Source: Roseburia sp. (GTDB lineage Bacteria > Bacillota > Clostridia > Lachnospirales > Lachnospiraceae). From it: DNA of 64,000 nucleotides. The translations under genes were made by a program, and so were the position numbers. The number at the start of each line of letters is the position of its first letter. The stretch's first letter is position 1. The DNA lies in NCBI GenBank assembly GCA_019421345.1, contig JAHZFL010000003.1, forward strand, positions 209,799-273,798. Direction: 5' to 3'. A model generated the notes under the pieces. It had not been told where the DNA came from. It did not search any database and was given only the letters and a program-made list of their open reading frames with translations. Below, in pieces: positions 37,902 through 50,451 of the stretch.

Positions 37902-39290
37902 TTAAACCTGAGGCTCGTGCATCTGTATCTGCACATCATACGTTCCGCCGGCGCGTTCCTTCCATAGAAGCTTATAGCCATGCGCCCGGATGATCTGTGT
38001 GACGATGCGCAGTCCCATAATATGTACCCCGGCGTCCTCTCCACTGCCGCTGCCATCCTGCAAAAGCGCCTTAACGATCCTTGCAGGGATTCCCGCTCCG
38101 CTGTCGGCAAAGGTCATACGGATTCCGTCCTCACATCGGGCGGCTGTCACGAAAATGCAGCAGCCGTCCGGATTGTGACGGATACTGTTGCCGATCAGAT
38201 TCCGAAAAGCCCGCAGCAGCAAATTCACATCACCACAGATCTTAAACGGCTCCGCCGCCTCGTGGACGGAAAGCTCGAACTCATATTTCCCCGAAAGTCC
38301 CTGATTATAATATTCTGCTACACATTCCCGCAGTAAAACGGCGGGAGAAACCATGACAAGCGTAAGCGGCTGTGCCTGATATTCCAGCTTGGAGGTGAGA
38401 TTTAAGTCTGCGATCAACTGGTGGATCATAAGGCTCTGCTCTTTTATGGCCTGCGCTCTTTTCTGCATCTGCTCCTCTGTCATGCCGTCCCCCGAAAGCT
38501 CGTCCGCATATCCGGTGATCAGCGCCAGCGGCGTTCGGATGTCGTGCGATACCCCGGCAATCCACTCTGTGCGCGCCGCATCACGCTTTGTCAGCTTCTG
38601 CTCCTGCCACTCCAAAAGCCGCGCCGTCTCGTTTAATTTTGCCGCCAGCTCTCCCATTAGCCCCTTTTCCGGGATTGGCTCATGTTCCTTTTGGGTCAAC
38701 TGCTCTAAGCCCCGCGCAATCGGGCGCATCGAACGATAAAACCGGTAGGCAAGCCATAGCGACAGCACAAGCAGCAGGATAAGATTTGCCGTCAGCATTT
38801 GCAAAAGCAGAGCAGGCATATTTTGCACCATCGCAAGGTCATAGAGCACACTAAAACGTGTGACGCTGTCTTGCTCCATCCCAAAAACCATCAGTTCCTC
38901 ACCGTTCCGCCAGACGCGCACCGGATAATCGTTTAGATACCAGCGGCTTAGAGCGGCAACATCGCCGATGCTGTAATGATGGTTTAGCTCCGGCGGCAGC
39001 TCCCAGCTCCATGCGACAGCGCCGCTTTCATCCAAAAGCATCGCCCACACAAAGGAGCTCTCAGAGAGAAGGCGCATCCCCTCCTCCCCCATTGCGCGCA
39101 CGCCGTTTTCCTGCCCCAGTGAATTTACGACAGCCTCCATTGTCTCCCGGCTGATGTCCCGTCCGTTTGCCTTTCCTATATTAATGACGCCGATATAGAG
39201 AAACAACGCAAAATTTAAGTAAAGCAGCAGCATTGCCAGAAAAATTCCTGACAGAATATACCTTCTGCATATTTTCCACAGGCTTTTCAT
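37902..39290 (-). CDS. Sensor histidine kinase (two TM helices flanking a ~130-aa extracytoplasmic domain)
   Basis: H-box GVSHDIRTPLALI. N/G boxes (IGNSIRHN, DSGAGIP). The start ATG overlaps the response-regulator stop in an ATGA arrangement. Confidence 0.85.
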   Translation of the reverse strand: MKSLWKICRRYILSGIFLAMLLLYLNFALFLYIGVINIGKANGRDISRETMEAVVNSLGQENGVRAMGEEGMRLLSESSFVWAMLLDESGAVAWSWELPPELNHHYSIGDVAALSRWYLNDYPVRVWRNGEELMVFGMEQDSVTRFSVLYDLAMVQNMPALLLQMLTANLILLLVLSLWLAYRFYRSMRPIARGLEQLTQKEHEPIPEKGLMGELAAKLNETARLLEWQEQKLTKRDAARTEWIAGVSHDIRTPLALITGYADELSGDGMTEEQMQKRAQAIKEQSLMIHQLIADLNLTSKLEYQAQPLTLVMVSPAVLLRECVAEYYNQGLSGKYEFELSVHEAAEPFKICGDVNLLLRAFRNLIGNSIRHNPDGCCIFVTAARCEDGIRMTFADSGAGIPARIVKALLQDGSGSGEDAGVHIMGLRIVTQIIRAHGYKLLWKERAGGTYDVQIQMHEPQV

Positions 39291-40000
39291 CGCTGACACT
39301 CCTTTAACAGACGATAACCGATCCCGCGCACGGTTAAAAGCCAGACCGGATGGGAAGGGTCTGGCTCGATCTTTTCCCTCAGATGGCGGATATGTACCAT
39401 CAATGTGTTCTCATATCCATAATAATCATCGTTCCAGACTGCCCGTGTCAGGGCGTCAAAGGTCACCACATTGCCGCGATTTGCCGCAAGCTTTTTTAGC
39501 AGGAGCAGCTCCTTTGCCGTAAGCATCGTGGTCGTCCCTTCACATGTGACAGTCGCATTTTTTAAGGAAACCTCCCTGCCGGAGAGGTTTAACGTTTCAT
39601 CCGCTTCCGCCTCCTGGCCGCGAAAATAGGAACGTGTCAAAATCGCGTTGACACGGAGCACGAGCTCCTGCGGCAAAAACGGCTTTGTGATATAGTCATC
39701 CGCTCCAAGCCCCAGCCCGAACAGTCTGTCATTGTCCTCATCCTTCGCCGATAAAAACAAAATCGGGACGGCGGACACCTCGCGCATCCGCCGGAATAAG
39801 GTATAGCCGTCGCCGTCAGGAAGCATGATGTCCAAAATCACAAGCTTTGGCGTCTCCCGCAAAAACACCTCTATGCCCTCTTTACAGCTCCCTGCCGTAT
39901 AGACGGTCTCGTAGCCGCTCTTTCTTAAAATATCGCAGGTCATGCCTGCAAGCTTTTCATTGTCATCCACCAGAAGGATGCTGCAATTATATAAATTCAT
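39287..40000 (-). CDS. OmpR-family response regulator
   Basis: Start set at MNLYNCSILLVDD (AAGGAG 9 nt upstream). Receiver domain (DIMLPDGDG). Winged-helix C-terminus (LTAKELLLLKKLAANRG..., VRGIGYRL). Confidence 0.85.
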   Translation of the reverse strand: MNLYNCSILLVDDNEKLAGMTCDILRKSGYETVYTAGSCKEGIEVFLRETPKLVILDIMLPDGDGYTLFRRMREVSAVPILFLSAKDEDNDRLFGLGLGADDYITKPFLPQELVLRVNAILTRSYFRGQEAEADETLNLSGREVSLKNATVTCEGTTTMLTAKELLLLKKLAANRGNVVTFDALTRAVWNDDYYGYENTLMVHIRHLREKIEPDPSHPVWLLTVRGIGYRLLKECQR

Positions 40001-40172
40001 GGTACGGATTCTCCTTTTTTCACTCCCAATATACCTTATTTTTATCCGCAATGCCAGAGCCCTGCCCCAAAACTTAAGGAAAAAATAAGGCGGCTTTCAG
40101 TCTGCTTTAAGCCTGTGCCCTTAGGATAGACATATGCCGAAACGGCAAAAGAAAAAACGGAGGGTAACTGCC

Positions 40173-41084
40173 ATGAAAAATATGATAGAAACACATGCGC
40201 TCACAAAGCAATACAAAAAACAGCGTGTCGTCTCAGAGCTGGACTTAGCTGTTCCGGAGGGCTGTATCTACGGCTTCCTCGGACCAAACGGCGCGGGAAA
40301 ATCCACTACCATGAAAATGATCCTGGGACTGGTCAAGCCAACCGGCGGTCAGATCCGCGTGCTCGGGCAAAACGCAGACGCGAAAAACCGGATTGCCCTG
40401 CTGCGCTCCACCGGCTCGCTCATTGAATCTCCCGCCTTCTACGGTCACCTGACCGGACGGGAAAATCTTTCCCTGATCGCAGATTTAAAGCAGACCGGGA
40501 AAAAGGAGGTCGACGAGGTGCTTCGCACCGTCCGCCTGACAGACGCACAGCACAAAAAAGCATCCCGCTACTCACTCGGCATGAAACAGCGGCTTGGCTT
40601 TGCCGCAGCGCTGCTCGGTCATCCAAAGCTTTTGCTCTTAGACGAGCCGACGAACGGTCTTGATCCTGCCGGTATTCAGGAGATGCGTGAACTCATCCGC
40701 CGTCTCTGCGAGCAGCACGGAATCACCGTTTTTGTATCGAGCCATCTGCTCTCGGAGATCGACCAGATGGCAAACCATGTGGGCATCATCAATCACGGCG
40801 TTTTGATCTTTCAGGACCGCCTGTCGGCGCTCCACGAGCACAGCCGCGCGCGGATGCTGCTTCGCACGACGGAGGATGAAACGGCACTTCGCATCCTAAA
40901 GCAGGCAGCGCTTCCATGCACCTCCACGCACGGCGGACTTTACTTAAATACGGCGAAAGAAGCGGATATTCTGCGTGCCGGAACGCTTCTTTTTTCCAAT
41001 GGACTTGGCATCCTTTCACTTGCCGAGGAGCAAAAGAGCCTGGAAGACATCTTTCTTGAACTCACCGGAAGGAGCGTGATGTAA
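40173..41084 (+). CDS. ABC transporter ATP-binding subunit, lantibiotic-protection (NisF/MutF/SpaF) type
   Basis: Walker A GPNGAGKST, signature LGMKQRL and Walker B LLLLDEPTNGLD. It is followed by two ~250-aa ABC-2 permease genes. Confidence 0.75.
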   Translation: MKNMIETHALTKQYKKQRVVSELDLAVPEGCIYGFLGPNGAGKSTTMKMILGLVKPTGGQIRVLGQNADAKNRIALLRSTGSLIESPAFYGHLTGRENLSLIADLKQTGKKEVDEVLRTVRLTDAQHKKASRYSLGMKQRLGFAAALLGHPKLLLLDEPTNGLDPAGIQEMRELIRRLCEQHGITVFVSSHLLSEIDQMANHVGIINHGVLIFQDRLSALHEHSRARMLLRTTEDETALRILKQAALPCTSTHGGLYLNTAKEADILRAGTLLFSNGLGILSLAEEQKSLEDIFLELTGRSVM

Positions 41085-41834
41085 ATGACCGGTCTTTTTG
41101 TGGAACTAAAAAAAGGACGGCACAAAAGGCTCTGGCTCGTCCCTTTAGTCTTTCTTATCGTTTTATTTTTATGGTCTGCCTATACCTATCAGAATGCAGC
41201 GACGGAGGATCTTGCAGCCGGCTACACAAAAATGTTTTATCAGCTTCCTCTGATGAATACGATGCTTATGCCCGTATTGCTTTCAGTGCTTGCCAGCCGT
41301 CTCTGCGACATGGAGATCAAAGGACAGACGCTAAAGCTGCTCTATACCTTGCAGCAAAAAGGCAGCTTTTATGACCTCAAATTTGTACACGAAGGTTTTT
41401 ATCTGCTGCTGTTTACCATTGGGGAATGTCTGCTGTTTCCGCTGGCGGGAAGGCTCTATCATTTTACCGAGCCGCTCTCCCTGCCGCTGCTGCTTCGACA
41501 CGGCGTGGCGCTGTTTCTTGCCGGAGCCGTCATCCTGATTTTACAGCACATTCTCTCGCTCCTTTGCGAAAACCAGATCGCTCCGCTTTTTATCGGGCTT
41601 GCAGGCGCTTTTATCGGACTGTTTTCGATGTTTTTCCCGCCTGCTCTCACACGGATTCTTCCGTGGAGCTATTTTGGCGCGTTCCTCCCCTATCGGATGG
41701 AATACGACCCTGCCACAAGGATCATGAGCTTTTATGAGCTGCCGTTTCCCATTGCCCTGTTTCTCGGCTATATGTTTTTTGGCGTTGCCTTGTATCTCAT
41801 TTGCCGCAGTATTTTTCTCAAAAAGGAGGTTTGA
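41085..41834 (+). CDS. ABC-2 permease, MutE/EpiE-like lantibiotic immunity subunit
   Basis: 249 aa with six hydrophobic helices. Its start abuts the ATPase stop (TAAATG). Confidence 0.6.
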   Translation: MTGLFVELKKGRHKRLWLVPLVFLIVLFLWSAYTYQNAATEDLAAGYTKMFYQLPLMNTMLMPVLLSVLASRLCDMEIKGQTLKLLYTLQQKGSFYDLKFVHEGFYLLLFTIGECLLFPLAGRLYHFTEPLSLPLLLRHGVALFLAGAVILILQHILSLLCENQIAPLFIGLAGAFIGLFSMFFPPALTRILPWSYFGAFLPYRMEYDPATRIMSFYELPFPIALFLGYMFFGVALYLICRSIFLKKEV

Positions 41835-41837
41835 CCT

Positions 41838-42584
41838 ATGACATTTTTATGTATTCGGGCGGAAGCCGCAAAGCTGCGCCGCTCCATCATCTGGCTCGCG
41901 TGTCTGCTGCTACCGATAATCCCCGCCATCATGGGTGTCTTTAATTACCAGAGTAATCTTGGAATTCTGACTAACGGCTGGTACTCGCTCTGGTCGCAGG
42001 TGACACTTTTTTACAGCAATTTCTTCTATGCGCCTCTCATAGCGCTCTATGCCGCCTATCTCTGGCGTATGGAGCACATGGACCACAACTGGAATGTCCT
42101 GATGACAGTTCCCGTCGGGGTGAGTGATATTTTCTTCGGAAAGCTTGCAGTGATCTTGTTTGTCACAGTGCTGACCCAGATGATCATTTTCATATTTTAC
42201 TTCATCGGCGGGAAATTCTGCGGTCTTTCCGGTCTGCCACCTGCCGAAATATTCTTCTGGCTGCTGCGCGGCTCGCTCGCCGGGACGGCTATCGGTTCTC
42301 TGCAGCTTCTGCTCTCTATGTGCATCCAAAGCTTTGCACTTCCGATCGGCATCGCACTGCTTGGGAGCGTTATGGGACTTGTGATCTCCGGTTTTCATGC
42401 CGGCGAAATCAGTCTCGGTCTGTACTGGCCATATTCTCTGATGCTGATGGGCATGAACGCAAACCGCGATACCGATACGCTTGCCGGAAACAGTCTGCCG
42501 TTTGTCGGATGCGTCGTACTGTTCTTTTTGCTGTTCACATGGATTGCCGTTCACAGGTTAAAAACGAGGGATGTGCAGGCATAG
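41838..42584 (+). CDS. ABC-2 permease, MutG-like lantibiotic immunity subunit
   Basis: 248 aa with six hydrophobic helices. 3-nt gap to the preceding permease. Confidence 0.6.
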   Translation: MTFLCIRAEAAKLRRSIIWLACLLLPIIPAIMGVFNYQSNLGILTNGWYSLWSQVTLFYSNFFYAPLIALYAAYLWRMEHMDHNWNVLMTVPVGVSDIFFGKLAVILFVTVLTQMIIFIFYFIGGKFCGLSGLPPAEIFFWLLRGSLAGTAIGSLQLLLSMCIQSFALPIGIALLGSVMGLVISGFHAGEISLGLYWPYSLMLMGMNANRDTDTLAGNSLPFVGCVVLFFLLFTWIAVHRLKTRDVQA

Positions 42585-42623: not shown

Positions 42624-42672
42624 GTAAAAATACCGTGCAAAAATTCCTCCCTTTGGGTTTCTGCACGGTATT
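42624..42672 (-). terminator. Terminator of the RiPP operon (11-bp stem AATACCGTGCA/TGCACGGTATT, then T-run on the minus strand)
   Basis: Perfect inverted repeat 42629-42639 / 42662-42672. The minus strand reads TGCACGGTATTTTTAC. It lies between convergent operons. Confidence 0.65.
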
Positions 42673-42707
42673 ACCAGATCCAATGCACTATGTGATTATA
42701 CCGATTT

Positions 42708-44531
42708 TTATGATCCGTTTATTTGCACCCCATACTTTTCCGCTTGAAGATTGTACATTTTCTTGTAAAGACCATCCTTACGAATCAATGAAGCATGCGT
42801 CCCATCTTCTACGATCTTACCATCCTCTAATACAAGAATTCGGTTCATCAATTTTACATGGGACAGACGGTGGGAAATCATGACGCATATATTATGCTCC
42901 CCGATCTCCATCAACATTTGCAAGATCGTTTCTTCTGTCTCCGAATCCAATGCCATCGTAGGCTCGTCAAAAACATAGATAGGAGAATTTTTAAAAAGAA
43001 CGCGCAACATAGCAAGACACTGCCCCTGACCACCGGATGGAGATACATATTTTGATGATAACGCGGGTGTCAGAAAGGTATTTTCTTTTGCTTCCAACAT
43101 GGAAATCCATGCTTCCAGATTGGATACAGAAAATAACTCTTTGACCCGCTCCTTTTCCTGTGGACTTATTTGTTCTTCTGCCTTACCTGCAATATTTTCT
43201 AAAATGGTAACCGGCAGCAACCCATAATCCTGAAATAGCGCTGCGATAAATTCCTGATGCTCATCCGCATCCATTTCTTGAATGTCTTTTCCATCGAGCA
43301 GTATTTGTCCTGACTGCGGTGCATAGAATTTGCAAAGCAGTTTTACTATTGTACTCTTTCCTGCTCCATTCATTCCGACAATCCCTACCTTTTCTCCAGA
43401 AGAAATTGAAAAACTCACATTTTTAAGCGCCGGTATCGTTTTCTGCGGATAAGTAAATGTCACATCATTAAATTCCAGTGTATGTATGGATTCTAACTTT
43501 CTTGTATGTGAAATGCTTGGCTCACAATGTTTTTCGATAATTGAAAAAAAAGAATCTAACAGAGCATCAAATTTTTTTACCATGTTTATTTCAACGATAA
43601 TCTCGTTACACGCTGTGCTGACAGCACAAATTGCGCTAAATAAAAGTACAAAATCTTCCACCGAAAGCTTTTGCATGGAACGAAAGCCAATAAAAACAGA
43701 AAATACGACTATCTGAAACTGAATCAAAAATTTTACAAAGCCAAGATATAAGCCTTTTTTTGCAAAAGCCTTCTGATTTGTCAAATAAATCTTATCCATT
43801 AAGACACTGCAATGCTTCATAATGAGCGAGTCTCCTTGATATACCCGAAGATCTTCCCCATACCGAAAATCGGAAATCAATTTACAATACCATCCAAATG
43901 CTCTGTTTTCAGGCAAGAGACGCTTTGCATTATCCAGTTCTATTTTTGTTACATAACGATATAATGGTTTGAGAAAAAGAAGACTTATAACAGGAATAAG
44001 TAAATATTTCCAATCATAGACAGCGATAATTAAACCATTAAGGGTCATGGCTGCTATGGAGGAACCAAGTTTTTCCATGCTGGCTGACAATGCCGGAAGT
44101 TGCCATATTCCATATTTTGCACCTTGTGTCAATTCCATATTCTCAGAGGTAATAAATTCATCATAAGAAAGATCACTTTGTGAAATTCCAAGGTCTTCAT
44201 ATGCCTGACGGTATAGCTTGCCGGATTTTATTCTAAGCTTTTCGCGCAGTCGTGAGGCAATCATTTTTAGAATGAAATACATCATCTGAAATAAAATTGT
44301 GAAGATTACGATCTTCCATAGAGAATCATGATAGGTACTGACAATCATGACTAAGCTTCTGGGAATATATACCGCTGCAACAGATACGGCTGCATTCATG
44401 ACAATGGTCGCCAAGCAAAGCTCCGTCCACCGAAGCTTTTTCTCTATTGTATAATCAATAAACCGCAAGATATTATTTTTGCTGTTTTCAGCCTTCCTCA
44501 TATCTCTTTTTTTGCCCAATATACATTTCAT
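42708..44531 (-). CDS. ABC exporter half-transporter (TMD-NBD), partner 2
   Basis: 607 aa, with an N-terminal 6-TM domain. Walker A GMNGAGKST, degenerate signature SGGQGQ and Walker B IYVFDEPT. No N-terminal C39 peptidase domain. The start could be Met11 (44501). Confidence 0.8.
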   Translation of the reverse strand: MKCILGKKRDMRKAENSKNNILRFIDYTIEKKLRWTELCLATIVMNAAVSVAAVYIPRSLVMIVSTYHDSLWKIVIFTILFQMMYFILKMIASRLREKLRIKSGKLYRQAYEDLGISQSDLSYDEFITSENMELTQGAKYGIWQLPALSASMEKLGSSIAAMTLNGLIIAVYDWKYLLIPVISLLFLKPLYRYVTKIELDNAKRLLPENRAFGWYCKLISDFRYGEDLRVYQGDSLIMKHCSVLMDKIYLTNQKAFAKKGLYLGFVKFLIQFQIVVFSVFIGFRSMQKLSVEDFVLLFSAICAVSTACNEIIVEINMVKKFDALLDSFFSIIEKHCEPSISHTRKLESIHTLEFNDVTFTYPQKTIPALKNVSFSISSGEKVGIVGMNGAGKSTIVKLLCKFYAPQSGQILLDGKDIQEMDADEHQEFIAALFQDYGLLPVTILENIAGKAEEQISPQEKERVKELFSVSNLEAWISMLEAKENTFLTPALSSKYVSPSGGQGQCLAMLRVLFKNSPIYVFDEPTMALDSETEETILQMLMEIGEHNICVMISHRLSHVKLMNRILVLEDGKIVEDGTHASLIRKDGLYKKMYNLQAEKYGVQINGS

Positions 44532-46260
44532 AATATTGACCTTTCAGTTCCATAAGCTGTATATGTGTTCCGTTTTCTATGATTCTTCCCTTTTCCAATA
44601 AAATGATCCGATCGCAGAATCCAATAAATGAAAGCTGGTGAGAAACAATGATACTGGTGGAATTCTTGGTGATTTCCGAATAATTATGGTACAGTTCTTC
44701 TTCTGCAATTGCATCAATTGCGCCAGCAGGTTCGTCCAAAAGAAAAATTCTTCCGTTACGATAAATGGCACGAGCGAGCAGCAGCTTCTGACGTTCTCCA
44801 CCGGAAATATTTACTCCTTCTGAATTCATAATATTGGAAATTACCGTATTTCCTTTCTTTGGAAGTTTGTCTTCCGTGGCGTAAAAACCTGATAACTGCA
44901 TTGCTTTACAATATCGCTCCAAATCGGTATCTTCCGATAACGATACATTATCATAAATAGAAAAGGGGAAAATATTTCCGGTCTGTAAAACAACACTTAA
45001 TTGTTGATAATACTGTTCCGGAGGAATTTTTTTGATATCAACACCATTAAGCTTAATACATCCAAATTGTGGTTCATACAGCCGACATATTAATTTTATA
45101 ATAGTACTTTTTCCTGCTCCGTTCATACCAATGATAGCAGTTCTTTTCCCAGGTAGAATCACAAAAGATAAGTCATGAATCGTTGGCTTGTCTGAATCAG
45201 GATAGGAAAAGGTCACATGATCAAACTCCAGACTAAGAGGCTGACTGCTCATATCCTCAAACTTCGTATCCAGATATACTGGTTTTTCAGATTGCTCGAT
45301 TTCATCGATAATTTTCCAATAATCAGAGAAACGCTTTGCTTCTTTTTGGATTTTCGTGTTACTGTAAAAAATAGACTGTATTGCATTGCCCAACTGCAAG
45401 ACGCCCAGCACATAAGTCAAGAATGAACCAATGGGGAGATGCCCGGAGACAATACCGGTTGCAAGCCAGACATACACCACAACATCTCTCAAAAATTCAT
45501 TTATCAAAAGAAACATTTGATAATTCCATTTTTCTTTCTGCTTCTTAATCATAATCCCATGAATTACAGCAGAGTAATTTTTCCCATAACTGTGCAGCAG
45601 ATTTTTCAAAGAAAAAATCCTTATATCCTTTGCATAGCATTCTTCCATCAAAAGATCGTACACTTTTTCATGATTTCTGCTAAGAGGAGTAGTTTCCTGC
45701 CATTCTTCTTCGTCCTTTTTCTCTATCAGCACAGTGATACGAAACGAAATGAATACGGTAACAAGCAAAAATATCCCTAACAATGCAGACATTCTGCTTA
45801 TGATTCCAAACATACCAATGGATGTCAGAATTGCCGCCGGTAATTGATAGATTTCATTCATCATACTTCCAATTCCTATGGATGGATTCATAGAAGCTTC
45901 TCTTGCTTTCTCCAAACGACTTAAAAACTCAGAATTGATACTTTTGGAAAAAGGAATACGAATAGAAGACTTTATCAGATCTAAAAGGACAGAATATCTC
46001 ACTCGCTGCATCCGCATCCATCCGGCATTGCTCAACCAGGTACTTAGGAATAATGCAAAGGCTGCAAGTAAACCAAGAAGGCTGCCCAAAAGCAACCCCC
46101 TTTTATCCGTAACCAATATTGAATTGCAGATTGTTTCCGGCAGTAATACCCATAAGGTTTGAAATACAAACAGGCTGATGGAATAGATGATCCAATTTAA
46201 AATAAGAAATTTGTTAATCTGACAGGTTTTAGAAAGAATCAAGTTTAGTGTCCTTTTCAT
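44488..46260 (-). CDS. ABC exporter half-transporter (TMD-NBD), partner 1
   Basis: Start set at MKRTLNLIL (GAGGGGGG upstream). Walker A GMNGAGKST, signature SGGERQ and Walker B IFLLDEPA. No C39 domain. Confidence 0.8.
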   Translation of the reverse strand: MKRTLNLILSKTCQINKFLILNWIIYSISLFVFQTLWVLLPETICNSILVTDKRGLLLGSLLGLLAAFALFLSTWLSNAGWMRMQRVRYSVLLDLIKSSIRIPFSKSINSEFLSRLEKAREASMNPSIGIGSMMNEIYQLPAAILTSIGMFGIISRMSALLGIFLLVTVFISFRITVLIEKKDEEEWQETTPLSRNHEKVYDLLMEECYAKDIRIFSLKNLLHSYGKNYSAVIHGIMIKKQKEKWNYQMFLLINEFLRDVVVYVWLATGIVSGHLPIGSFLTYVLGVLQLGNAIQSIFYSNTKIQKEAKRFSDYWKIIDEIEQSEKPVYLDTKFEDMSSQPLSLEFDHVTFSYPDSDKPTIHDLSFVILPGKRTAIIGMNGAGKSTIIKLICRLYEPQFGCIKLNGVDIKKIPPEQYYQQLSVVLQTGNIFPFSIYDNVSLSEDTDLERYCKAMQLSGFYATEDKLPKKGNTVISNIMNSEGVNISGGERQKLLLARAIYRNGRIFLLDEPAGAIDAIAEEELYHNYSEITKNSTSIIVSHQLSFIGFCDRIILLEKGRIIENGTHIQLMELKGQYYEMYIGQKKRYEEG

Positions 46261-46271
46261 ATATCCCCCCT

Positions 46272-47288
46272 CTATGGCAAAGTGTATAAATCCGATCTTC
46301 CGATGTATGTCAATTTTCCGCACCTATTCGTTTCTCTTAATTTTCGTATTGTTTTTTTCGTTCTCTTTTCCAAACAATTTAGACATCCAGATACTTCCAT
46401 TAACATATCTTCATAAGAAGAAGACTCTAATATTGGCTTGGCGGCATCCAAGTTACCTTCATAATATTCAAGAACATGTGAAATAAACACTCGCGCGAAT
46501 AAATATGCATAATCTTTATTAAGTAAGAAAAATTTTTCACAGCAATCATACAGAGAAAGCTCAAAAAAATCATCATTGATTGTATAGCCACGAATTAAAT
46601 CATCATAATATTCTGCAATACCTTCTTCTATAAATTTTAATTTTATAGACAAATTATAGTTACTAATTATATGAGTAAGTTCATGACCAGCATCATCATT
46701 TACATTTACATGAATTGTACATAACGCAGTATTTGCATAACTTAATCTATTTCCTATATCATCGACCCAACCTAAGAATACATAAATATCAATACTTTTC
46801 TTGCATTTATTCGGTAAATATTTTGTTATTCTATAGTATGCATCCAAATACTTTCCAATAAATTGCTTCTTCATTTCTAATCCCAATTCATTTGAAAAAT
46901 GAAAATTCATCTTTTGTCGATTTACAAAATCAAATTTAGTTAATTTCAAAGTCAACAACCACTCAAGTGCAAAATCAGAATATTCACCGTTCTGCTTTAC
47001 TGATATTAATAAATTTGATTTTGCTTCATCATATTGTCCGCTACCGAAGGCAACCAAACCCTTGTATCCGAATATTTTACTAGAATCTTCCCATAAAAAT
47101 AAGTCTTCATTATATATATTAACAATTCGTGAAAATTCATCCCAATTTCCTGTCTCGAACAACGCATATATCAGATATCTGACCTCACATATTTCATACA
47201 TAAGGTACATATCAAAAATCTTACTATAATCTTTTTTCTCGTAATATTCTTTAAGTTTACTATCATACTTTTTAAAATTATTTTCCAT
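46272..47288 (-). CDS. HExxH metallopeptidase-like protein (MA-clan type) with helical-repeat N-terminal half; candidate leader peptidase
   Basis: 338 aa. GHELTHII (HExxH) is followed 17 residues later by EEGIAEYY, a candidate third-ligand Glu as in the gluzincin / Peptidase_MA_2 pattern. No signal peptide. 4-nt gap to the maturase gene. Confidence 0.55.
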   Translation of the reverse strand: MENNFKKYDSKLKEYYEKKDYSKIFDMYLMYEICEVRYLIYALFETGNWDEFSRIVNIYNEDLFLWEDSSKIFGYKGLVAFGSGQYDEAKSNLLISVKQNGEYSDFALEWLLTLKLTKFDFVNRQKMNFHFSNELGLEMKKQFIGKYLDAYYRITKYLPNKCKKSIDIYVFLGWVDDIGNRLSYANTALCTIHVNVNDDAGHELTHIISNYNLSIKLKFIEEGIAEYYDDLIRGYTINDDFFELSLYDCCEKFFLLNKDYAYLFARVFISHVLEYYEGNLDAAKPILESSSYEDMLMEVSGCLNCLEKRTKKTIRKLRETNRCGKLTYIGRSDLYTLP

Positions 47289-47292
47289 ATTC

Positions 47293-48570
47293 CTACTTTT
47301 TATAAAAAAAAGGCAACGACGTTAAGTTAAACTCTGAACATAATCTTTGCTTGTACTCATTCGATATGCAATATGCAATACAACCACCAAGACAATCAGG
47401 CAACTGAGAACAATTTAAACATTTCTGCTCACCAAAACAATTAGCTGCCTTATACCAGTTAACTAATTGTTCTGAATCCAACTGCATTGTTCCATCCTCC
47501 AAAATTTTTCCAACTTTTCCCCATTTATTATTAGGATCCTTAATATTAAGACATTTCCAAAATGACAAATCTGAAGTAATATAGCCAAAATCTGCATCCG
47601 AACAAGCTTCGCAAGATCTAGCAAAATATTGATTATACATTATACCATATCCGATAGACTCTGCGTAAGAAAGCAATTCAAAATAGTCACTTTCTGAATT
47701 AGAATTATCCCCTTCAAAGCATGACGTATCATAAATTTTTCTAAAAAAAACGCTGATTTTTTCTCGATATTGAGGACAAATCAAATTAAGACTTTCTTTT
47801 ACATCTTGAATTTCAGCATTTAGCAAATTAAATCTAAGAGTGAAATTATAATTCCAAAGTCTAAGATATGGTGCCACAATATCATTAATTACATGAATTA
47901 AATAATCAAAACTTCCTCTACCATCCTTAAACTTACGGGTTGAATCATGAGTGCGTTTACAACCATCCAATGTAATTTGAAGTGAATTACAATTATGTTT
48001 TTTTAATGATTCCATAATATCTGACGTCAAAAGAGATCCATTTGTAATGATAGAACATGTATAACAAAAACCATGTTTTTTTGAAAGTTCTGATACATAC
48101 TCCAAATAACCCAGCATTTCATCAAAAAATAGCAATGGTTCTCCGCCGAACATATTTATATCAATATGCTTATAAAATTTAAAATTCTTTTCAGCATATT
48201 TTTTCAAAGTAGGAAAATAATCAGGATTGATAGAACTATCACGATAAGGTTCTTCAAAGCAATATGGGCACGAAAAATTGCACGCCATTGAAGGCATTAA
48301 TGCAATACTTAGGGTATCTCGATTAAAATAACTTTTATTAAAAATGTATTGAAACTCCGCCACCTCATCTTTTTGATCTTCCACTACAAAACCATTTTGT
48401 ATAAGATCAATATATTTTTCCTCATTAATGCTCTTAGTATTCAACTCGCTTACTGCCTTCTCAATTGTTGAAGCCTCACGAACTTTCAGAAAAGCTTTTG
48501 TTAACGAATTATAGATAATGACTTTTTCACCAAATTTTCTAACAGAATTAAAACGACTTTGTTTATACAT
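47293..48570 (-). CDS. Radical SAM / SPASM-domain peptide maturase
   Basis: 425 aa. CNFSCPYC (CxxxCxxC) lies about 100 aa from the N-terminus, leaving room for an RRE-like domain. GGEPLL is present. C-terminal CLNCSQLPDCLGGC (Cx2Cx5Cx3C) plus extra Cys residues forms a SPASM auxiliary-cluster pattern. RBS AGGGGG. Confidence 0.8.
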   Translation of the reverse strand: MYKQSRFNSVRKFGEKVIIYNSLTKAFLKVREASTIEKAVSELNTKSINEEKYIDLIQNGFVVEDQKDEVAEFQYIFNKSYFNRDTLSIALMPSMACNFSCPYCFEEPYRDSSINPDYFPTLKKYAEKNFKFYKHIDINMFGGEPLLFFDEMLGYLEYVSELSKKHGFCYTCSIITNGSLLTSDIMESLKKHNCNSLQITLDGCKRTHDSTRKFKDGRGSFDYLIHVINDIVAPYLRLWNYNFTLRFNLLNAEIQDVKESLNLICPQYREKISVFFRKIYDTSCFEGDNSNSESDYFELLSYAESIGYGIMYNQYFARSCEACSDADFGYITSDLSFWKCLNIKDPNNKWGKVGKILEDGTMQLDSEQLVNWYKAANCFGEQKCLNCSQLPDCLGGCIAYCISNEYKQRLCSEFNLTSLPFFYKK

Positions 48571-48603
48571 ATATGCCCCCTATTATATTTTTGTAAAATA
48601 TAT

Positions 48604-48661
48604 ATCCCCTTGTTGTTTTAGTGTTGTACATTTATTGAAACACCTCATACACCAAGGGGAT
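48604..48661 (-). promoter_or_regulatory. Intercistronic hairpin between precursor and maturase genes (candidate attenuator or processing site)
   Basis: On the minus strand: ATCCCCTTG...(inner GTGTT/AACAC pairing)...CAAGGGGAT, followed by ATATATTTT. The outer 9-bp stem is perfect (48604-48612 / 48653-48661). Confidence 0.45.
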
Positions 48662-48689
48662 TTTCACCGTATAATACGTCAACTACATA

Positions 48690-48869
48690 TTAATATTTAT
48701 AAATTAGGGGACCACCTCCTCCACAATTACCTGTACAAGTACACGCATCTAGTAAAGAAATAAATTTGGATTTACCCACATTAGAAGCGACTGTTTCAAT
48801 TACTTGTTTTGTTGAAAAAGATGCTTTTTTGATTACTTCGTATTCTTTCTTTTTACTAAAGTCTTTCAT
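48690..48869 (-). CDS. Unannotated 59-aa Cys-rich RiPP precursor peptide
   Basis: Hand translation: MKDFSKKKEYEVIKKASFSTKQVIETVASNVGKSKFISLLDACTCTGNCGGGGPLIYKY*. The RBS GAAAGGAG ends about 6 nt before the ATG. It lies directly upstream of the rSAM/SPASM gene. It is 59 aa, so below the 60-aa ORF-track threshold. Confidence 0.7.
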   Translation of the reverse strand: MKDFSKKKEYEVIKKASFSTKQVIETVASNVGKSKFISLLDACTCTGNCGGGGPLIYKY

Positions 48870-48911
48870 GATGGTCTCCTTTCAATTAAAAAAATTTTGT
48901 ACTTATAGCAA

Positions 48912-48940
48912 AGTATATACAATAGTAGTTTCATTGTCAA
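48912..48940 (-). promoter_or_regulatory. Sigma-70-type promoter of the RiPP operon (TTGACA-17nt-TATACT)
   Basis: On the minus strand, TTGACA is at 48940-48935 and TATACT at 48917-48912 with 17-nt spacing. An A/T-rich UP-like tract lies upstream. The -10 hexamer ends about 43 nt before the precursor ATG. Confidence 0.55.
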
Positions 48941-50075
48941 GAAAATTTTTGTATTTTATTACTAATTGATATTGTAAAAGTATAGTGATGTTGTAACATA
49001 ATTTTTTACAACCCTACTTCACGCATTTATAAAAAATATACAGAAAAGAGATTTGAAAATGGTGCAAAAAAGTTTATGACAAAAAATCCAAAGTTCAGCC
49101 TTTGAAAATTAGTATAAAGATGGGGTTTGAAGATGAAGAAAGAACTGACCATTAATAAAATACTCTCGGCGGCTGGAATAGGCATGCATAAGTTATCTGA
49201 TTGGATTTGGGAACTGGTACTTAGATACCGATTAACCACTATGAGTGTTACAGAATACTCGTTTAAACTAGGAAAAGGAGTCTCTAGACGAGACAAGCGC
49301 TTTTTTGTCGCCGGCGTTCAGAAGTCTGATGTTAATATAACTAGTGTCCGGATAATGATTATGTTATCTAACCAAAATCCAAATAAACTTAGTTTTGAGT
49401 AATCCCAGATTTTTTCTCTGGCATCTTCTGTTTTTAAAGTACCAGTTAACTGTTTTGGAACTTGAATTTCATGTCATACTTCTATGCATCTAGTTCTTTG
49501 TTGAAACATTACAGATTCCCTACCCTCCTGAAAAGGTAGGTTCGGTTCACTGAATAAATTTAAAAAAATTCAATTCCAGCATCGTTAGCTAGACTTTATG
49601 TTAAAAAAGAATTTTTTACTGCAGTTTTTAATTTTCACTTTTGATTCGAAAGTTTTTCTCATGAAATCGCAATCATTTAGGTCTATAGATTGTTTTTATC
49701 ATTCTTTGTTAAAGTGGCTGTGCGATTGTAGATTCTGGCTTTTGATTCTCTATACAAAGCGGCAACACTTTTTTAAGAGTTGCCTCCTTCTATACTAAGA
49801 CAAACTAGTTATAAATCATCGAACAGAAAAATCAACTTTCCAATACCTTTATTATGCTCTGTATAATGCATCTAAATATGTTTATCTATATAACCTACTC
49901 CTACTATAATCTCCACACATTTATATTTGCACAATGTACTAATGATCTACTGATCTCTCTTACGTCTTCTTTAATTTTGCCATATAGTATCATCTTCCGG
50001 TATTTCGGTATGAATACTATGTAGTATTGGCATTTCCAACAAGTATGTGACATGCTTTTATTGTCTATCCGAACC

Positions 50076-50134
50076 AACTGCTATGTTATATTGAGTTTGG
50101 CTTACAACGCCATTCTCAATATAACATAGCAGTT
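50076..50134. repeat. Perfect 20-bp inverted repeat (AACTGCTATGTTATATTGAG / CTCAATATAACATAGCAGTT), 19-nt spacer
   Basis: Read directly from the sequence. It lies in the non-coding AT-rich tail of the island and is followed by TTTCTT on the plus strand. Confidence 0.8.
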
Positions 50135-50451
50135 TTCTTATTGATACCCTCACTGTTTCCACCTACACTATTCTACCCAGCATAGTTATGCGAATAGTCT
50201 TTTCCTTTAACTTTGAATTTAAATATTTCCTTTGAAAGCGCCTAAAAAGCTACTCTTTTATCATACAGCTTTCAAAATTCCAAAAATTATCCCTGATTTT
50301 TTCTATCTAATATGCATTTTTTAAATTTATTAAAAAAGCTAATTTTTGACTTAATTTAATAGTTAGTCTCTCTTTTTAAAGAGCTTTTCGTATATGAAAT
50401 ACAGTAAAACATGTTCTATAAAACCTCTAAATCCCGACTCTCACACGGCAT

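Follow-up and report, generated by a model that had tools for sequence, protein, structure and literature searches.

The described systems closest to the locus analyzed here are CteB/CteA (thermocellin) and Tte1186 (SCIFF-type ranthipeptide), in which, as in our operon, an RRE-radical SAM-SPASM enzyme is the sole modifier of a peptide whose C-terminal core is rich in Cys. Within the SCIFF core, a C-T-V-G-N-Q-x-C stretch is reminiscent of the C-T-G-N-C described below. The sactipeptide operons sbo-alb, trn and rumC follow the same logic (precursor, radical-SAM enzyme, protease and ABC exporter, the structural gene being followed by a hairpin), and the peptidase of sbo-alb is the AlbE/AlbF pair (bioRxiv 10.64898/2026.07.27.741052). 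Other SPASM enzymes, PapB (freyrasin), NxxcB and QhpD, form beta/gamma thioethers from Cys to Asp, Asn or Glu (PMC10114670, PMC10177961), and the binding of the substrate Cys to auxiliary cluster 1 in PapB, Tte1186 and CteB (PMC10177961) offers a mechanistic precedent.

We analyzed a stretch of 64,000 nucleotides of Roseburia sp. DNA (the window), in which a sequence-only reading had proposed that five tightly packed minus-strand genes form a RiPP operon. The features described in that reading were all confirmed at its coordinates, and the five genes lie in the proposed order, with junctions of 119, 4 and 11 nt followed by an overlap, and all five reading frames are intact. Our results support the RiPP reading, and the two computational checks suggested along with it, on sulfatase-maturase affinity and on conservation of the small ORF, both turned out in its favour. 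We consider it rather probable that the five genes make up an intact cluster, carried on a horizontally acquired island, whose product is a ribosomal peptide that is modified by the radical-SAM enzyme and exported.

Table. Coordinates of the operon, its predicted expression signals and the adjoining end of the island.
Feature	Position in window	Strand	Description
Precursor gene	48690-48869	minus	59 aa
Box codons	48723-48749	minus	DACTCTGNC; family-defining, presumed modification site
rSAM gene	47293-48570	minus	425 aa; RRE-radical SAM-SPASM peptide maturase
HExxH protein gene	46272-47288	minus	338 aa
ABC1, half-transporter 1	44488-46260	minus	590 aa from ATG 46260
ABC2, half-transporter 2	42708-44531	minus	607 aa; overlaps ABC1
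Predicted sigma-70-type promoter	48912-48940	minus	TTGACA-17 nt-TATACT; 11/12 consensus matches
Intergenic stem-loop	48604-48661	minus	AUCCCCUUG...CAAGGGGAU, then U-rich stretch; between precursor and rSAM genes
Intrinsic-terminator-like hairpin and T-run	42624-42672	minus	operon end; z = -3.4
Island left end	48970-50450	not assigned	AT-rich, non-coding, insertion-sequence debris

The mechanical ORF of ABC1 extends to a GTG at 46323; the 590-aa form, whose ATG is preceded by the ribosome-binding site GAGGGGGG, is the version called in other strains. A GGAG ribosome-binding site lies 8 nt 5' of the precursor start. The promoter named in the sequence-only reading is present and was the top-scoring site within 42.4-49.4 kb. 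It carries weight as a candidate because it lies only 43 nt 5' of the first ATG, that of the precursor, and inside a block common to strain L002, whose upstream flank departs from the window sequence at 48967 onward. Promoter-like sites overall were not enriched (20 found versus 30 +/- 5 in shuffles). By a rough estimate, not computed with a tool, a promoter match of 11/12 is no unusual find within 7 kb of AT-rich sequence. The hairpin noted earlier in the 119-nt junction was also found (region dG -30.9 kcal/mol, z = -3.8, 0/200 shuffles equally stable) and, by analogy with other bacteriocin operons, is a possible partial terminator or mRNA-stabilising element. The terminal hairpin and T-run are likewise present, and a simple scanner missed this hairpin because of its long loop.

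Both Cys motifs previously read in the enzyme, CNFSCPYC (C97, C101 and C104) and Cx2Cx5Cx3C (C384, C387, C393 and C397), are present and invariant in 26 homologues, as are C320, C323, C340 and C411, giving three radical-SAM and eight auxiliary Cys. The proposed RRE-radical SAM-SPASM architecture is supported by an AF2 model (pLDDT 86.7), for which the top Foldseek match was CteB (5wgg; E = 5e-18, TM 0.66, full length). This match takes in an N-terminal three-strand, three-helix domain, and the model bears out a predicted RRE-like domain at the N-terminus. CteB was the best PDB match by sequence as well. Pfam matches were restricted to PF04055 and PF13353, as only generic radical-SAM models passed the threshold, and no curated family model reached its cut-off on the enzyme. 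The best NCBIfam matches (CefB, TIGR04463, Clo7bot, PapB, CcpM and SCIFF) are all maturases of Cys-rich peptides. The top three, CefB (Cys-every-fifth), TIGR04463 and Clo7bot, aligned over nearly the full length with 184, 165 and 136 bits, and their cut-offs of 600, 525 and 600 are far above the scores of the window enzyme and of five relatives. These three families are curated but, to our knowledge, uncharacterised, and their precursors differ from the peptides of our family, which none of the models matches. Scores were lower still for the models of PapB (93 bits versus 340), SCIFF (TIGR03974, 71.8 versus 425), RumMC (58 versus 720) and QhpD (57 versus 453), and SkfB matched the radical-SAM core only. 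No other tailoring enzyme gene was found within the island; as the sequence-only reading had it, modification in this cluster falls to the radical-SAM enzyme alone.

The window precursor consists of a leader (approximately residues 1-40), a box (D41-C49) and a variable tail. Relative to the core named in the sequence-only reading, the conserved box starts two residues earlier, at D41-A42. The C-terminal box of the family, L-D-A-C-x-C-T-G-N-(x0-2)-C, is nearly invariant: over 49 distinct precursors, which set a lower limit of at least 49 on family size, both Cys of DACxCTGN and the Thr were invariant, D, A and G were each found in 46/49 and N in 47/49, and conservation within the box is highest at its three Cys. 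Enzyme homologues (30-68% identity) with a small box-ending ORF upstream were found at 32 related loci, and the family ranges from Bacillota to methanogenic archaea. Conservation of the small ORF beside the enzyme was examined in both directions. When 1.1 Mb of loci were six-frame translated in an enzyme-first search, 43 of the 45 motif matches fell on the ORF that immediately precedes the rSAM gene, and in a peptide-first reverse search of metagenome loci, the enzyme adjoined the peptide in 19/19 assessable cases; the ORF thus accompanies enzyme homologues at every assessable locus. The earlier suggestion of a new RiPP family holds insofar as no Pfam or NCBIfam model matches the window precursor, NCBIfam has none for other DACxCTGN precursors, and the peptide family has no description in curated databases or searchable papers, but the product is not singular, since it belongs to a large family.

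Compared with SCIFF peptides, which carry six Cys in ~45 residues, the window peptide has three within a 9-residue box, and its operon, unlike SCIFF-type systems, includes a dedicated peptidase and an ABC exporter. Many family precursors stop right after the third Cys and are thus too short there to accommodate a long nested hairpin like that of sactipeptides. The motif spacing of NxxcB is N-x-x-C. Short-range Cys-Asp/Asn links like those of PapB, NxxcB and QhpD would be compatible with the invariant D, N and C of the box, where the spacing is D-x-C and C-x-x-N versus Cx3D for PapB (PMC10177961).

The HExxH protein is cytoplasmic, with a TPR-like domain and a gluzincin motif (HELTH...EEGIAEY) in which H202, E203, H206, E222 and E226 are invariant. 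It had no Pfam, NCBIfam or PDB sequence match, and its AF2 model (pLDDT 86) weakly resembled the M9 collagenase peptidase domain and M1/LTA4H, of the MA-clan fold (Foldseek TM 0.41-0.46). The protein is rare (215 representatives at E <= 0.001 among 1.84 billion proteins) and co-occurs with long-leader precursors, whose leaders end in ...S-(L/P)-(L/R)-DAC. Metallopeptidases that process RiPP leaders include M1 AplP, M16, M61, M103 TldD/E and M50 EpeP (review PMC10885120). The window protein shares with these a zinc-dependent HExxH type and presence in a RiPP cluster, and its fold is related to M1 and M9, but it differs from them in its N-terminal TPR-like domain and in matching no family model; the TPR-gluzincin type is not among the families in that review, and it also differs from AlbE/AlbF. 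ABC1 matches ABC_tran and resembles MsbA and NHLM exporters; its alignment to models that contain C39 begins only at profile position 138 or 223, which indicates that ABC1 has no peptidase domain. Since the transporters are without C39, the HExxH protein is the sole leader-peptidase candidate in the operon. The two-component and LanFEG-like genes nearby, which the sequence-only reading had linked to immunity, have host GC (51%) and were not found with homologous clusters elsewhere; such a link is therefore unsupported.

Altogether, the most likely function of the five-gene operon is the production and export of a small peptide with cysteine cross-links. The RRE of the enzyme would bind the leader, where a strand motif of the form hydrophobic-hydrophobic-x-(K/E)-A recurs (EYEVIKKASFS in the window), and the radical-SAM core would take a hydrogen atom within or beside the box, so that its three Cys could form intramolecular thioethers (sactionine or ranthionine) to conserved neighbours, with Asp41, Thr46, Gly47 or Asn48 as candidate partners. 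The product would be a compact polycyclic 9-residue knot plus the variable tail, here GGGGPLIYKY. The TPR-gluzincin protein would cut the leader off, at a site guessed to lie near ...K-S-x-F-I-S-L-(L/R)|D-A-C, and the heterodimeric ABC exporter would secrete the product and probably protect the producer.

We infer thioether chemistry from the invariant Cys-rich box and the distant (~20% identity) similarity to CteB. It is unlikely, though a serious alternative, that the enzyme of the same RiPP operon instead places a different modification on the box; a C-C or C-O cross-link, epimerisation, anSME-like oxidation of the Cys beta-carbon and a cofactor-like or metal-binding moiety share this weight jointly, and the Cys would then be metal ligands or recognition elements and not thioether donors. 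The extra invariant auxiliary Cys (C320-x2-C323) sits at the open, substrate-binding iron of auxiliary cluster 1 in CteB and brings the family to eight auxiliary Cys versus seven in CteB, PapB and Tte1186, which would speak against thioethers. Fully ligated auxiliary clusters occur in anSME and SuiB, neither of which is known to make thioethers. Pointing the same way are the structural neighbours that rank after CteB (TigE, a cyclopropyl synthase; anSME; SuiB, C-C; and ChlB), the scores below cut-off for every curated thioether-maturase model, a box that stays almost unchanged between bacteria and archaea, which recalls PqqA- or MftA-type precursors, and the occurrence of the peptide-enzyme pair without any exporter, beside PP2C, kinase and helicase genes. 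However, CteB is clearly the best match by both structure and sequence, the characterised members among the top family matches (PapB and SCIFF) form thioethers, and it is the Cys that lead the conservation of the box. The generic Pfam matches and the presence of anSME among the neighbours might also suggest a sulfatase maturase, or a cofactor or small-molecule enzyme, with the small ORF being fortuitous. This is extremely improbable: the anSME model TIGR03942 scored 48.5 bits versus a cut-off of 349, an RRE-like domain is present, and no sulfatase gene lies nearby; the score and the two-way peptide-enzyme linkage effectively refute it.

It is also quite improbable that the cluster survives in the window only as a non-functional remnant, unexpressed or without product on a decaying island. 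The operon lies within a 7.8-kb island (42.6-50.45 kb; GC 31-37% versus 48-53% in the flanks), and this low GC and the IS debris indicate horizontal acquisition. Directly upstream are 1.5 kb of AT-rich debris with IS fragments, including an IS200/IS605 TnpA fragment at 49904-50077 (NF033573, E = 1.5e-10). L092 has lost this region by deletion, in L002 other sequence takes its place, and in L004 and L005 it holds additional IS copies. In same-species strains the cluster is decaying, with the precursor or all biosynthetic genes lost and the transporters kept: L004 and L005 have an IS inside the precursor leader (truncated product P0142), and a 4,038-bp deletion in L092 removes the precursor, rSAM and peptidase genes and leaves both ABC genes. 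ABC1 is possibly frameshifted in L001 and L005, but these are long-read assemblies, and the frameshifts may be assembly errors. Against a remnant in the window stand the intact frames, good ribosome-binding sites, strong promoter match and terminator, and a precursor that four other assemblies share at 100% identity despite an overall DNA difference of ~1.3%.

The most likely role of the product is intercellular, as a bacteriocin or signal, given that a 65%-identical cluster elsewhere lies directly behind an agrB/LytTR/histidine-kinase module and that L092 has kept its ABC pair after losing the biosynthetic genes, which is what a protective pump would lead one to expect. Bacteriocin cores normally diversify; a core that is near-invariant across phyla is atypical for them and more reminiscent of cofactor-type or housekeeping peptides. 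The window operon is not a one-off but one member of a large, widespread and apparently uncharacterised family, whose members public genomes and metagenomes already contain without annotation.

The sequence-only reading had described a compact operon on the minus strand, and the features on which it drew were all recovered: five reading frames from 48.94 to 42.62 kb, junctions of 119, 4 and 11 nt followed by an overlap, a promoter, and the two hairpins. The 11-nt junction is counted from the ATG of the first ABC gene at 46260, which is preceded by GAGGGGGG and at which gene calls in other strains also begin. The promoter draws its weight from its position. AT-rich DNA contains matches of this kind at no unusual frequency (20 promoter-like sites in the region vs 30 ± 5 in shuffles). 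No promoter was shared across homologous clusters, whose upstream regions could not be aligned and each contained its own promoter-like site, and no Rfam match was found in the window. From 42.6 to about 50.45 kb the GC content is 27-43%, vs 47-54% in both flanks; this low GC and a non-coding left end with a transposase fragment indicate that an island of about 7.8 kb was horizontally acquired.

Coordinates of the operon, its signals and the left end of the island
Feature	Position	Strand	Remarks
Precursor ORF, 59 aa	48690-48869	minus	behind GGAG ribosome-binding site
Radical-SAM protein, 425 aa	47293-48570	minus	
HExxH protein, 338 aa	46272-47288	minus	
ABC half-transporter 1	44488-46260 or 46323	minus	
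ABC half-transporter 2	42708-44531	minus	
Promoter TTGACA-17-TATACT	48940-48912	minus	top-scoring site of the region
Hairpin between precursor and enzyme genes	48604-48661		region dG -30.9 kcal/mol, z = -3.8; 0/200 shuffles more stable
Terminal hairpin and T-run	42624-42672		z = -3.4; 0/200 shuffles more stable
Codons of C320-E-A-C323	47603-47614		CxxC where CteB has its first AC1 ligand
AT-rich non-coding left island end, 1.5 kb	48970-50450		IS debris, other short broken frames
IS200/IS605 transposase N-terminal fragment, 57 aa	49904-50077	minus	

Relatives of the radical-SAM enzyme formed at least 120 clusters at E < 1e-88 in the protein database, and an enzyme-first scan with one genome per species gave 79 loci. 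Every locus of at least 30% identity with upstream sequence carried a small same-strand ORF directly 5' of the radical-SAM gene, ending in LDAC[T/G]CTGN and then C or G-x-C; at the lowest enzyme identities, derived precursor ends were seen (e.g. NQCxCTDxxCxC). When 1.1 Mb of fetched loci were searched in six frames for the box DACxCTGN(x0-2)C, which reads DACTCTGNC (D41 to C49) in the window precursor, 43 of the 45 occurrences were in the ORF upstream of the radical-SAM gene. A peptide-first search with a degenerate DNA pattern for DACTCTGNC returned 21 metagenome contigs, all with the match at the C-terminus of a small ORF, and a radical-SAM homologue (35-64% identity) adjoined this ORF in 19 of the 19 contigs with enough flank, the other two ending early. 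Thus, both directions of search bear out the proposed pairing of the small ORF with homologues of the enzyme. Searched by word index among proteins, the 59-aa peptide retrieved only itself and a truncated allele, since small ORFs are rarely called; it was the six-frame and DNA-pattern searches that found the homologues.

Both box Cys and the Thr were invariant across a set of 49 distinct precursors, in which D, A and G were each present in 46 and N in 47; these proportions are biased upward because part of the set was chosen by the pattern itself. The residue preceding the box was Leu in 39 precursors and Arg in 8, and the tail after the box was hypervariable, with 0-11 residues. The leaders shared an N-terminal strand-like motif, hydrophobic-hydrophobic-x-(K/E/N)-A, e.g. 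EVIKKASFS in the window and EIIKEAKTS, EIINEAEFN and KIVKVNKAK at other loci. No NCBIfam or Pfam model matched any precursor, with none in NCBIfam for the window precursor at E <= 10, and a PDB search with the latter gave nothing useful. Carriers included Clostridia, Bacilli, Izemoplasmatales, Anaerococcus and the cultured isolate Falcatimonas sp. MSJ-15, whose cluster (L031) is of the window type. Archaea (Methanothrix, Methanoperedens, Nanoarchaeota) were carriers as well, and so were bins with the labels Elusimicrobia and Muribaculaceae. Three matches to a looser pattern on viral contigs had no radical-SAM neighbour and look like chance. The best plasmid candidate was a 30%-identical enzyme on a Bacillus cereus megaplasmid with no obvious small Cys-rich ORF among the ORFs listed, which we set aside as a different, uncharacterised family, as it probably is. 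This radical-SAM/SPASM gene occurs beside ABC transporter genes on B. cereus and B. thuringiensis megaplasmids, and on one of them (NZ_CP106676.1, 380510-381835; locus L118) it is annotated only as 'radical SAM protein'.

The enzyme matched Radical_SAM (PF04055, 45.1 bits vs a cut-off of 29.5) and Fer4_12 in Pfam. Its SAM-cluster CxxxCxxC (C97, C101, C104) was invariant in 26 sequences, as was the SPASM Cys set, i.e. Cx2Cx5Cx3C and flanking residues (C320, C323, C340, C384, C387, C393, C397, C411), and this region could be aligned by HMM to that of CteB, the SCIFF-type thioether synthase. In the AlphaFold model, strands at residues 8-13, 16-21 and 26-30 are followed by helices at 35-43, 50-58 and 69-81, so that the first 85 residues are predicted to have the layout of a RiPP recognition element (RRE), three strands and then three helices. 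The radical-SAM/SPASM architecture that had been proposed stood with respect to PF04055 and the invariant Cys of both regions, but not with respect to the Pfam SPASM model, which gave no score; the SPASM region by itself retrieved nothing useful from the PDB.

We then weighed whether the enzyme belongs to a known family. Over nearly its whole length, its best NCBIfam matches were CefB (184 bits, cut-off 600), TIGR04463 (165, cut-off 525) and Clo7bot (136, cut-off 600), all three of them maturases of Cys-rich peptides; five relatives from the family were likewise below these equivalog cut-offs. Lower matches, including geopeptide, FlmE/OhkG, PapB, CcpM, nif11 and SCIFF among others, were all far below the curated cut-off. 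The window cluster thus failed the tests with the curated models for CefB, TIGR04463 and Clo7bot, and also those for SCIFF maturases (TIGR03974, 71.8 bits vs 425), PapB (NF047865, 93.1 vs 340), RumMC (NF035951, 58 vs 720) and anaerobic sulfatase maturases (anSME; TIGR03942, 48.5 vs 349.45). The last of these families, to which assignment would have undermined a RiPP interpretation, is further disfavored by a neighborhood with no sulfatase gene. Regarding the known sactisynthases (AlbA, ThnB, SkfB, RumMC), the enzyme is no member, as judged by its RumMC score and by a match to SkfB (6efn) that covers the radical-SAM core only (E = 3.8e-4). As a PADLOC defense family, it showed only generic viperin-level radical-SAM similarity. 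In their operation, sactipeptide and ranthipeptide systems are nevertheless the closest likeness, CteB/SCIFF before PapB, NxxcB and QhpD. CteB (5wgg) was the closest PDB entry by sequence (E = 5e-15, or 2e-23 with the family profile), and the AlphaFold model (26 homologues, pLDDT 86.7) matched it best and over its full length (E = 5e-18, TM 0.66, 446 columns in the Foldseek alignment), followed by TigE, anSME, SuiB, ChlB and SkfB. The C-T-G-N-C of the box may also resemble part of the SCIFF core.

A simple CteB-like mechanism is disfavored by three observations: an eighth invariant Cys at auxiliary cluster 1 (AC1), a near-invariant core across phyla, and the occurrence of the same peptide-enzyme pair without any exporter. 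In CteB, AC1 is ligated by C344, C362 and C413 and has an open iron, and AC2 is ligated by C400, C403, C409 and C432 (PMC10177961). Mapping these ligands by HMM alignment assigns C323 or C320, C340 and C397 to AC1 of the window enzyme and C384, C387, C393 and C411 to its AC2, which leaves one invariant Cys more at AC1 than in CteB, PapB or Tte1186 (eight vs seven auxiliary Cys). Because the extra residue forms a CxxC, AC1 may have all of its irons ligated, in contrast to CteB with its open iron for substrate binding, and the eighth Cys offers a handle on whether an open AC1 iron is needed for thioether formation.

The HExxH protein had no Pfam, NCBIfam or PDB sequence match and, by inspection, no signal peptide or membrane segment. 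It is rare: a word search gave six clusters, and 215 representatives were found at E <= 0.001 among 1.84 billion proteins. Its homologues retain the gluzincin signature HELxH and EGxAE(Y/F), with H202, E203, H206, E222 and E226 invariant, and the homologue at one related locus (L031) reached no Pfam threshold (Peptidase_MA_2, 20.8 bits vs 32.4). In the structural model (pLDDT 86), an N-terminal domain of helical repeats is joined to a catalytic domain that had weak Foldseek matches to the peptidase domains of clostridial and Vibrio M9 collagenases (E = 1.4e-4 to 1e-2, TM 0.41-0.46) and then to M1/LTA4H enzymes. With HExxH, the downstream Glu and a modeled thermolysin-like fold, albeit from weak fold matches, the protein has the predicted make-up of an MA-clan gluzincin. 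It accompanies members with long leaders ending in K-S-x-(F/H/Y)-(I/V)-S-(L/P)-(L/R)-DAC, i.e. the window and the related loci L007, L008, L022, L031, L032, L086-L091, L099, L106, L109, L110 and L114. Peptidase-containing ABC transporters bear an N-terminal C39 domain, whereas none was found on either window ABC protein: Pfam detected only ABC_tran, and alignments to the bacteriocin exporter models started past C39, at profile positions 223 (TIGR01193) and 138 (TIGR03796). The single-gene exporters of other family loci also had no C39 domain. With no C39 domain on the exporters, the HExxH protein is left as the sole leader-peptidase candidate. RiPP metallopeptidases have so far come from M1, M16, M61, M103, M50 and M79 (PMC10885120), and the HExxH protein would add a further type to these families. 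If this TPR-gluzincin is a leader peptidase, it adds a leader-peptidase family that is possibly useful as a tool.

The genes at 37902-42584 encode a histidine kinase, an OmpR/VanR-type regulator, an ABC ATPase and two ABC-2 permeases, and the sequence-only reading had linked them to the operon as a two-component system with F/E/G immunity. The ABC module has some likeness to lantibiotic protection (TIGR03740, 262.8 bits vs a cut-off of 309.75). However, the link was unsupported, because these genes have the GC content of the host (51%, vs 31-37% in the island) and no such two-component or LanFEG-like genes were found beside homologous clusters elsewhere. They look like a resident module for peptide-antibiotic sensing and resistance, beside which the island probably landed rather than arriving with it.

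Within the species, strains of 98.6-99.5% DNA identity differed at this locus. The cluster was intact in three (L001, L003, L006), and in another (L002) the upstream flank differed from window position 48967 and carried Mob_Pre and HTH genes. Two strains (L004, L005) had an insertion sequence in the leader-coding part of the precursor gene, at about 48766, giving the truncated product P0142, and IS3-type and DDE_3 transposase genes where the window has the debris at 48970-50450. A further strain (L092) had a clean 4,038-bp deletion (46330-50367) that removed the peptidase, enzyme and precursor genes and kept both ABC genes, as might be expected if the pump protects against the product of neighbors. 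With producer, precursor-disrupted and transporter-only strains, the pattern resembles producer/cheater dynamics within a gut species. The first ABC gene was split into two or three frames in two assemblies from long reads (polypolish; L001:8317-10091, L005:8317-10088), which could reflect either genuine frameshifts or homopolymer errors in assembly.

The peptide-enzyme pair was also found in other settings. A 65%-identical cluster (L088:972-3938; precursor ending ...DACTCTGNCNGNYYS) lies directly downstream of an agr-type quorum-sensing module, consisting of genes for a LytTR response regulator, a histidine kinase, AgrB and a 62-aa ORF. Such an arrangement of agrB, LytTR and histidine kinase genes is typical of density-regulated bacteriocins or signals, and it suggests density-dependent control in this relative. 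Several relatives carried a second radical-SAM/SPASM gene (L009, L014, L015, L028, L032, L035). In L032 (7520-8938, 181 bits) it was PapB-like, and in L009 (7259-8500), L014 and L015 it was paralogous to the family enzyme; the window cluster is thus a minimal one-enzyme version. About ten metagenome-assembled loci (L012, L013, L016, L017, L019, L020, L024, L025, L027, L034), labelled mostly Bacilli with one Mycoplasma, one Bacillales and one probably misbinned Muribaculaceae, had a non-export module in the order [UvrD-like helicase]-peptide-rSAM-PP2C phosphatase-APH-type kinase-UvrD/PhoH-like helicase (e.g. L016:3220-11176). Here, the peptide is about 40 aa long and ends ...LDACGCTGNGxC, the maturase is 37-43% identical to the window enzyme, and the UvrD/PhoH-like helicase is GajB-like in PADLOC. 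No transporter or peptidase was found in these modules, and their outer flanks were not conserved. This context suggests an intracellular signaling or defense-type role for the modified peptide, and hints that the pair has a role other than bacteriocin production. Assignment to the conflict systems of an Aravind-lab paper (PMC7159879) was rejected since the radical-SAM-peptide systems of that paper differ.

Altogether, the interpretation of the locus as a RiPP operon was upheld in its main points. The window cluster is best seen as belonging, as an export-type member, to a large radical-SAM RiPP family that is uncurated and has a strikingly conserved nine-residue box. Its variable tail is the longest seen, and its partner peptidase is rare. 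That it is a functional-type RiPP cluster of the DACxCTGN family we consider very probable. Beyond the observed co-inheritance of precursor and enzyme, their domain architecture, the peptidase and exporter partners and the operon signals, we propose that the RRE of the enzyme would bind the precursor leader, that the enzyme would cross-link the three box Cys with nearby conserved residues, that the gluzincin would remove the leader in the cytoplasm, and that the ABC heterodimer would export the product. This scheme as a whole seems somewhat favored, and the chances that the box modifications are thioethers appear about even. The third Cys is the last residue in many members, so the cross-links would have to lie within or just upstream of the box, giving a compact knot in contrast to the long hairpin known from classical sactipeptides.

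In genome mining, it is not rare to meet uncharacterised radical-SAM RiPP families, and radical-SAM/SPASM enzymes are a main source of novel cross-linking chemistry in peptides. The searchable literature yielded no description of the DACxCTGN family. This is a weak sign of novelty, since a control search with putative SCIFF core strings returned no papers either, which suggests that text searches rarely find peptide sequences. The motif was absent from those parts of the text that were accessible of a Mitchell-lab compendium (PMC10288494) and a JBC mapping paper (PMC9062424), and literature searches for Clo7bot, TIGR04463 and CefB gave only unrelated acronyms. The family may well be an unnamed node in existing genome-mining networks. 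More tentatively, and with the balance tilted against it, the peptide and its maturase could be a new RiPP class, whose nine-residue box would become an undescribed scaffold, with an unusual cross-link topology or as a cofactor-like or metal-binding unit, reused across settings. If so, these settings would be secretion (the window case), association with a second radical-SAM enzyme, the intracellular PP2C/APH-type kinase/UvrD-like helicase module of reduced-genome Bacilli, and the archaeal loci. Among them, the window operon would represent the export type, bringing a new leader-peptidase family and the longest variable tail of any member. An unusually well-defined presumed modification site, a nine-residue box with three Cys that extends from gut Bacillota to methanogens, together with a minimal one-enzyme cluster, makes the family tractable for finding a new cross-link pattern.
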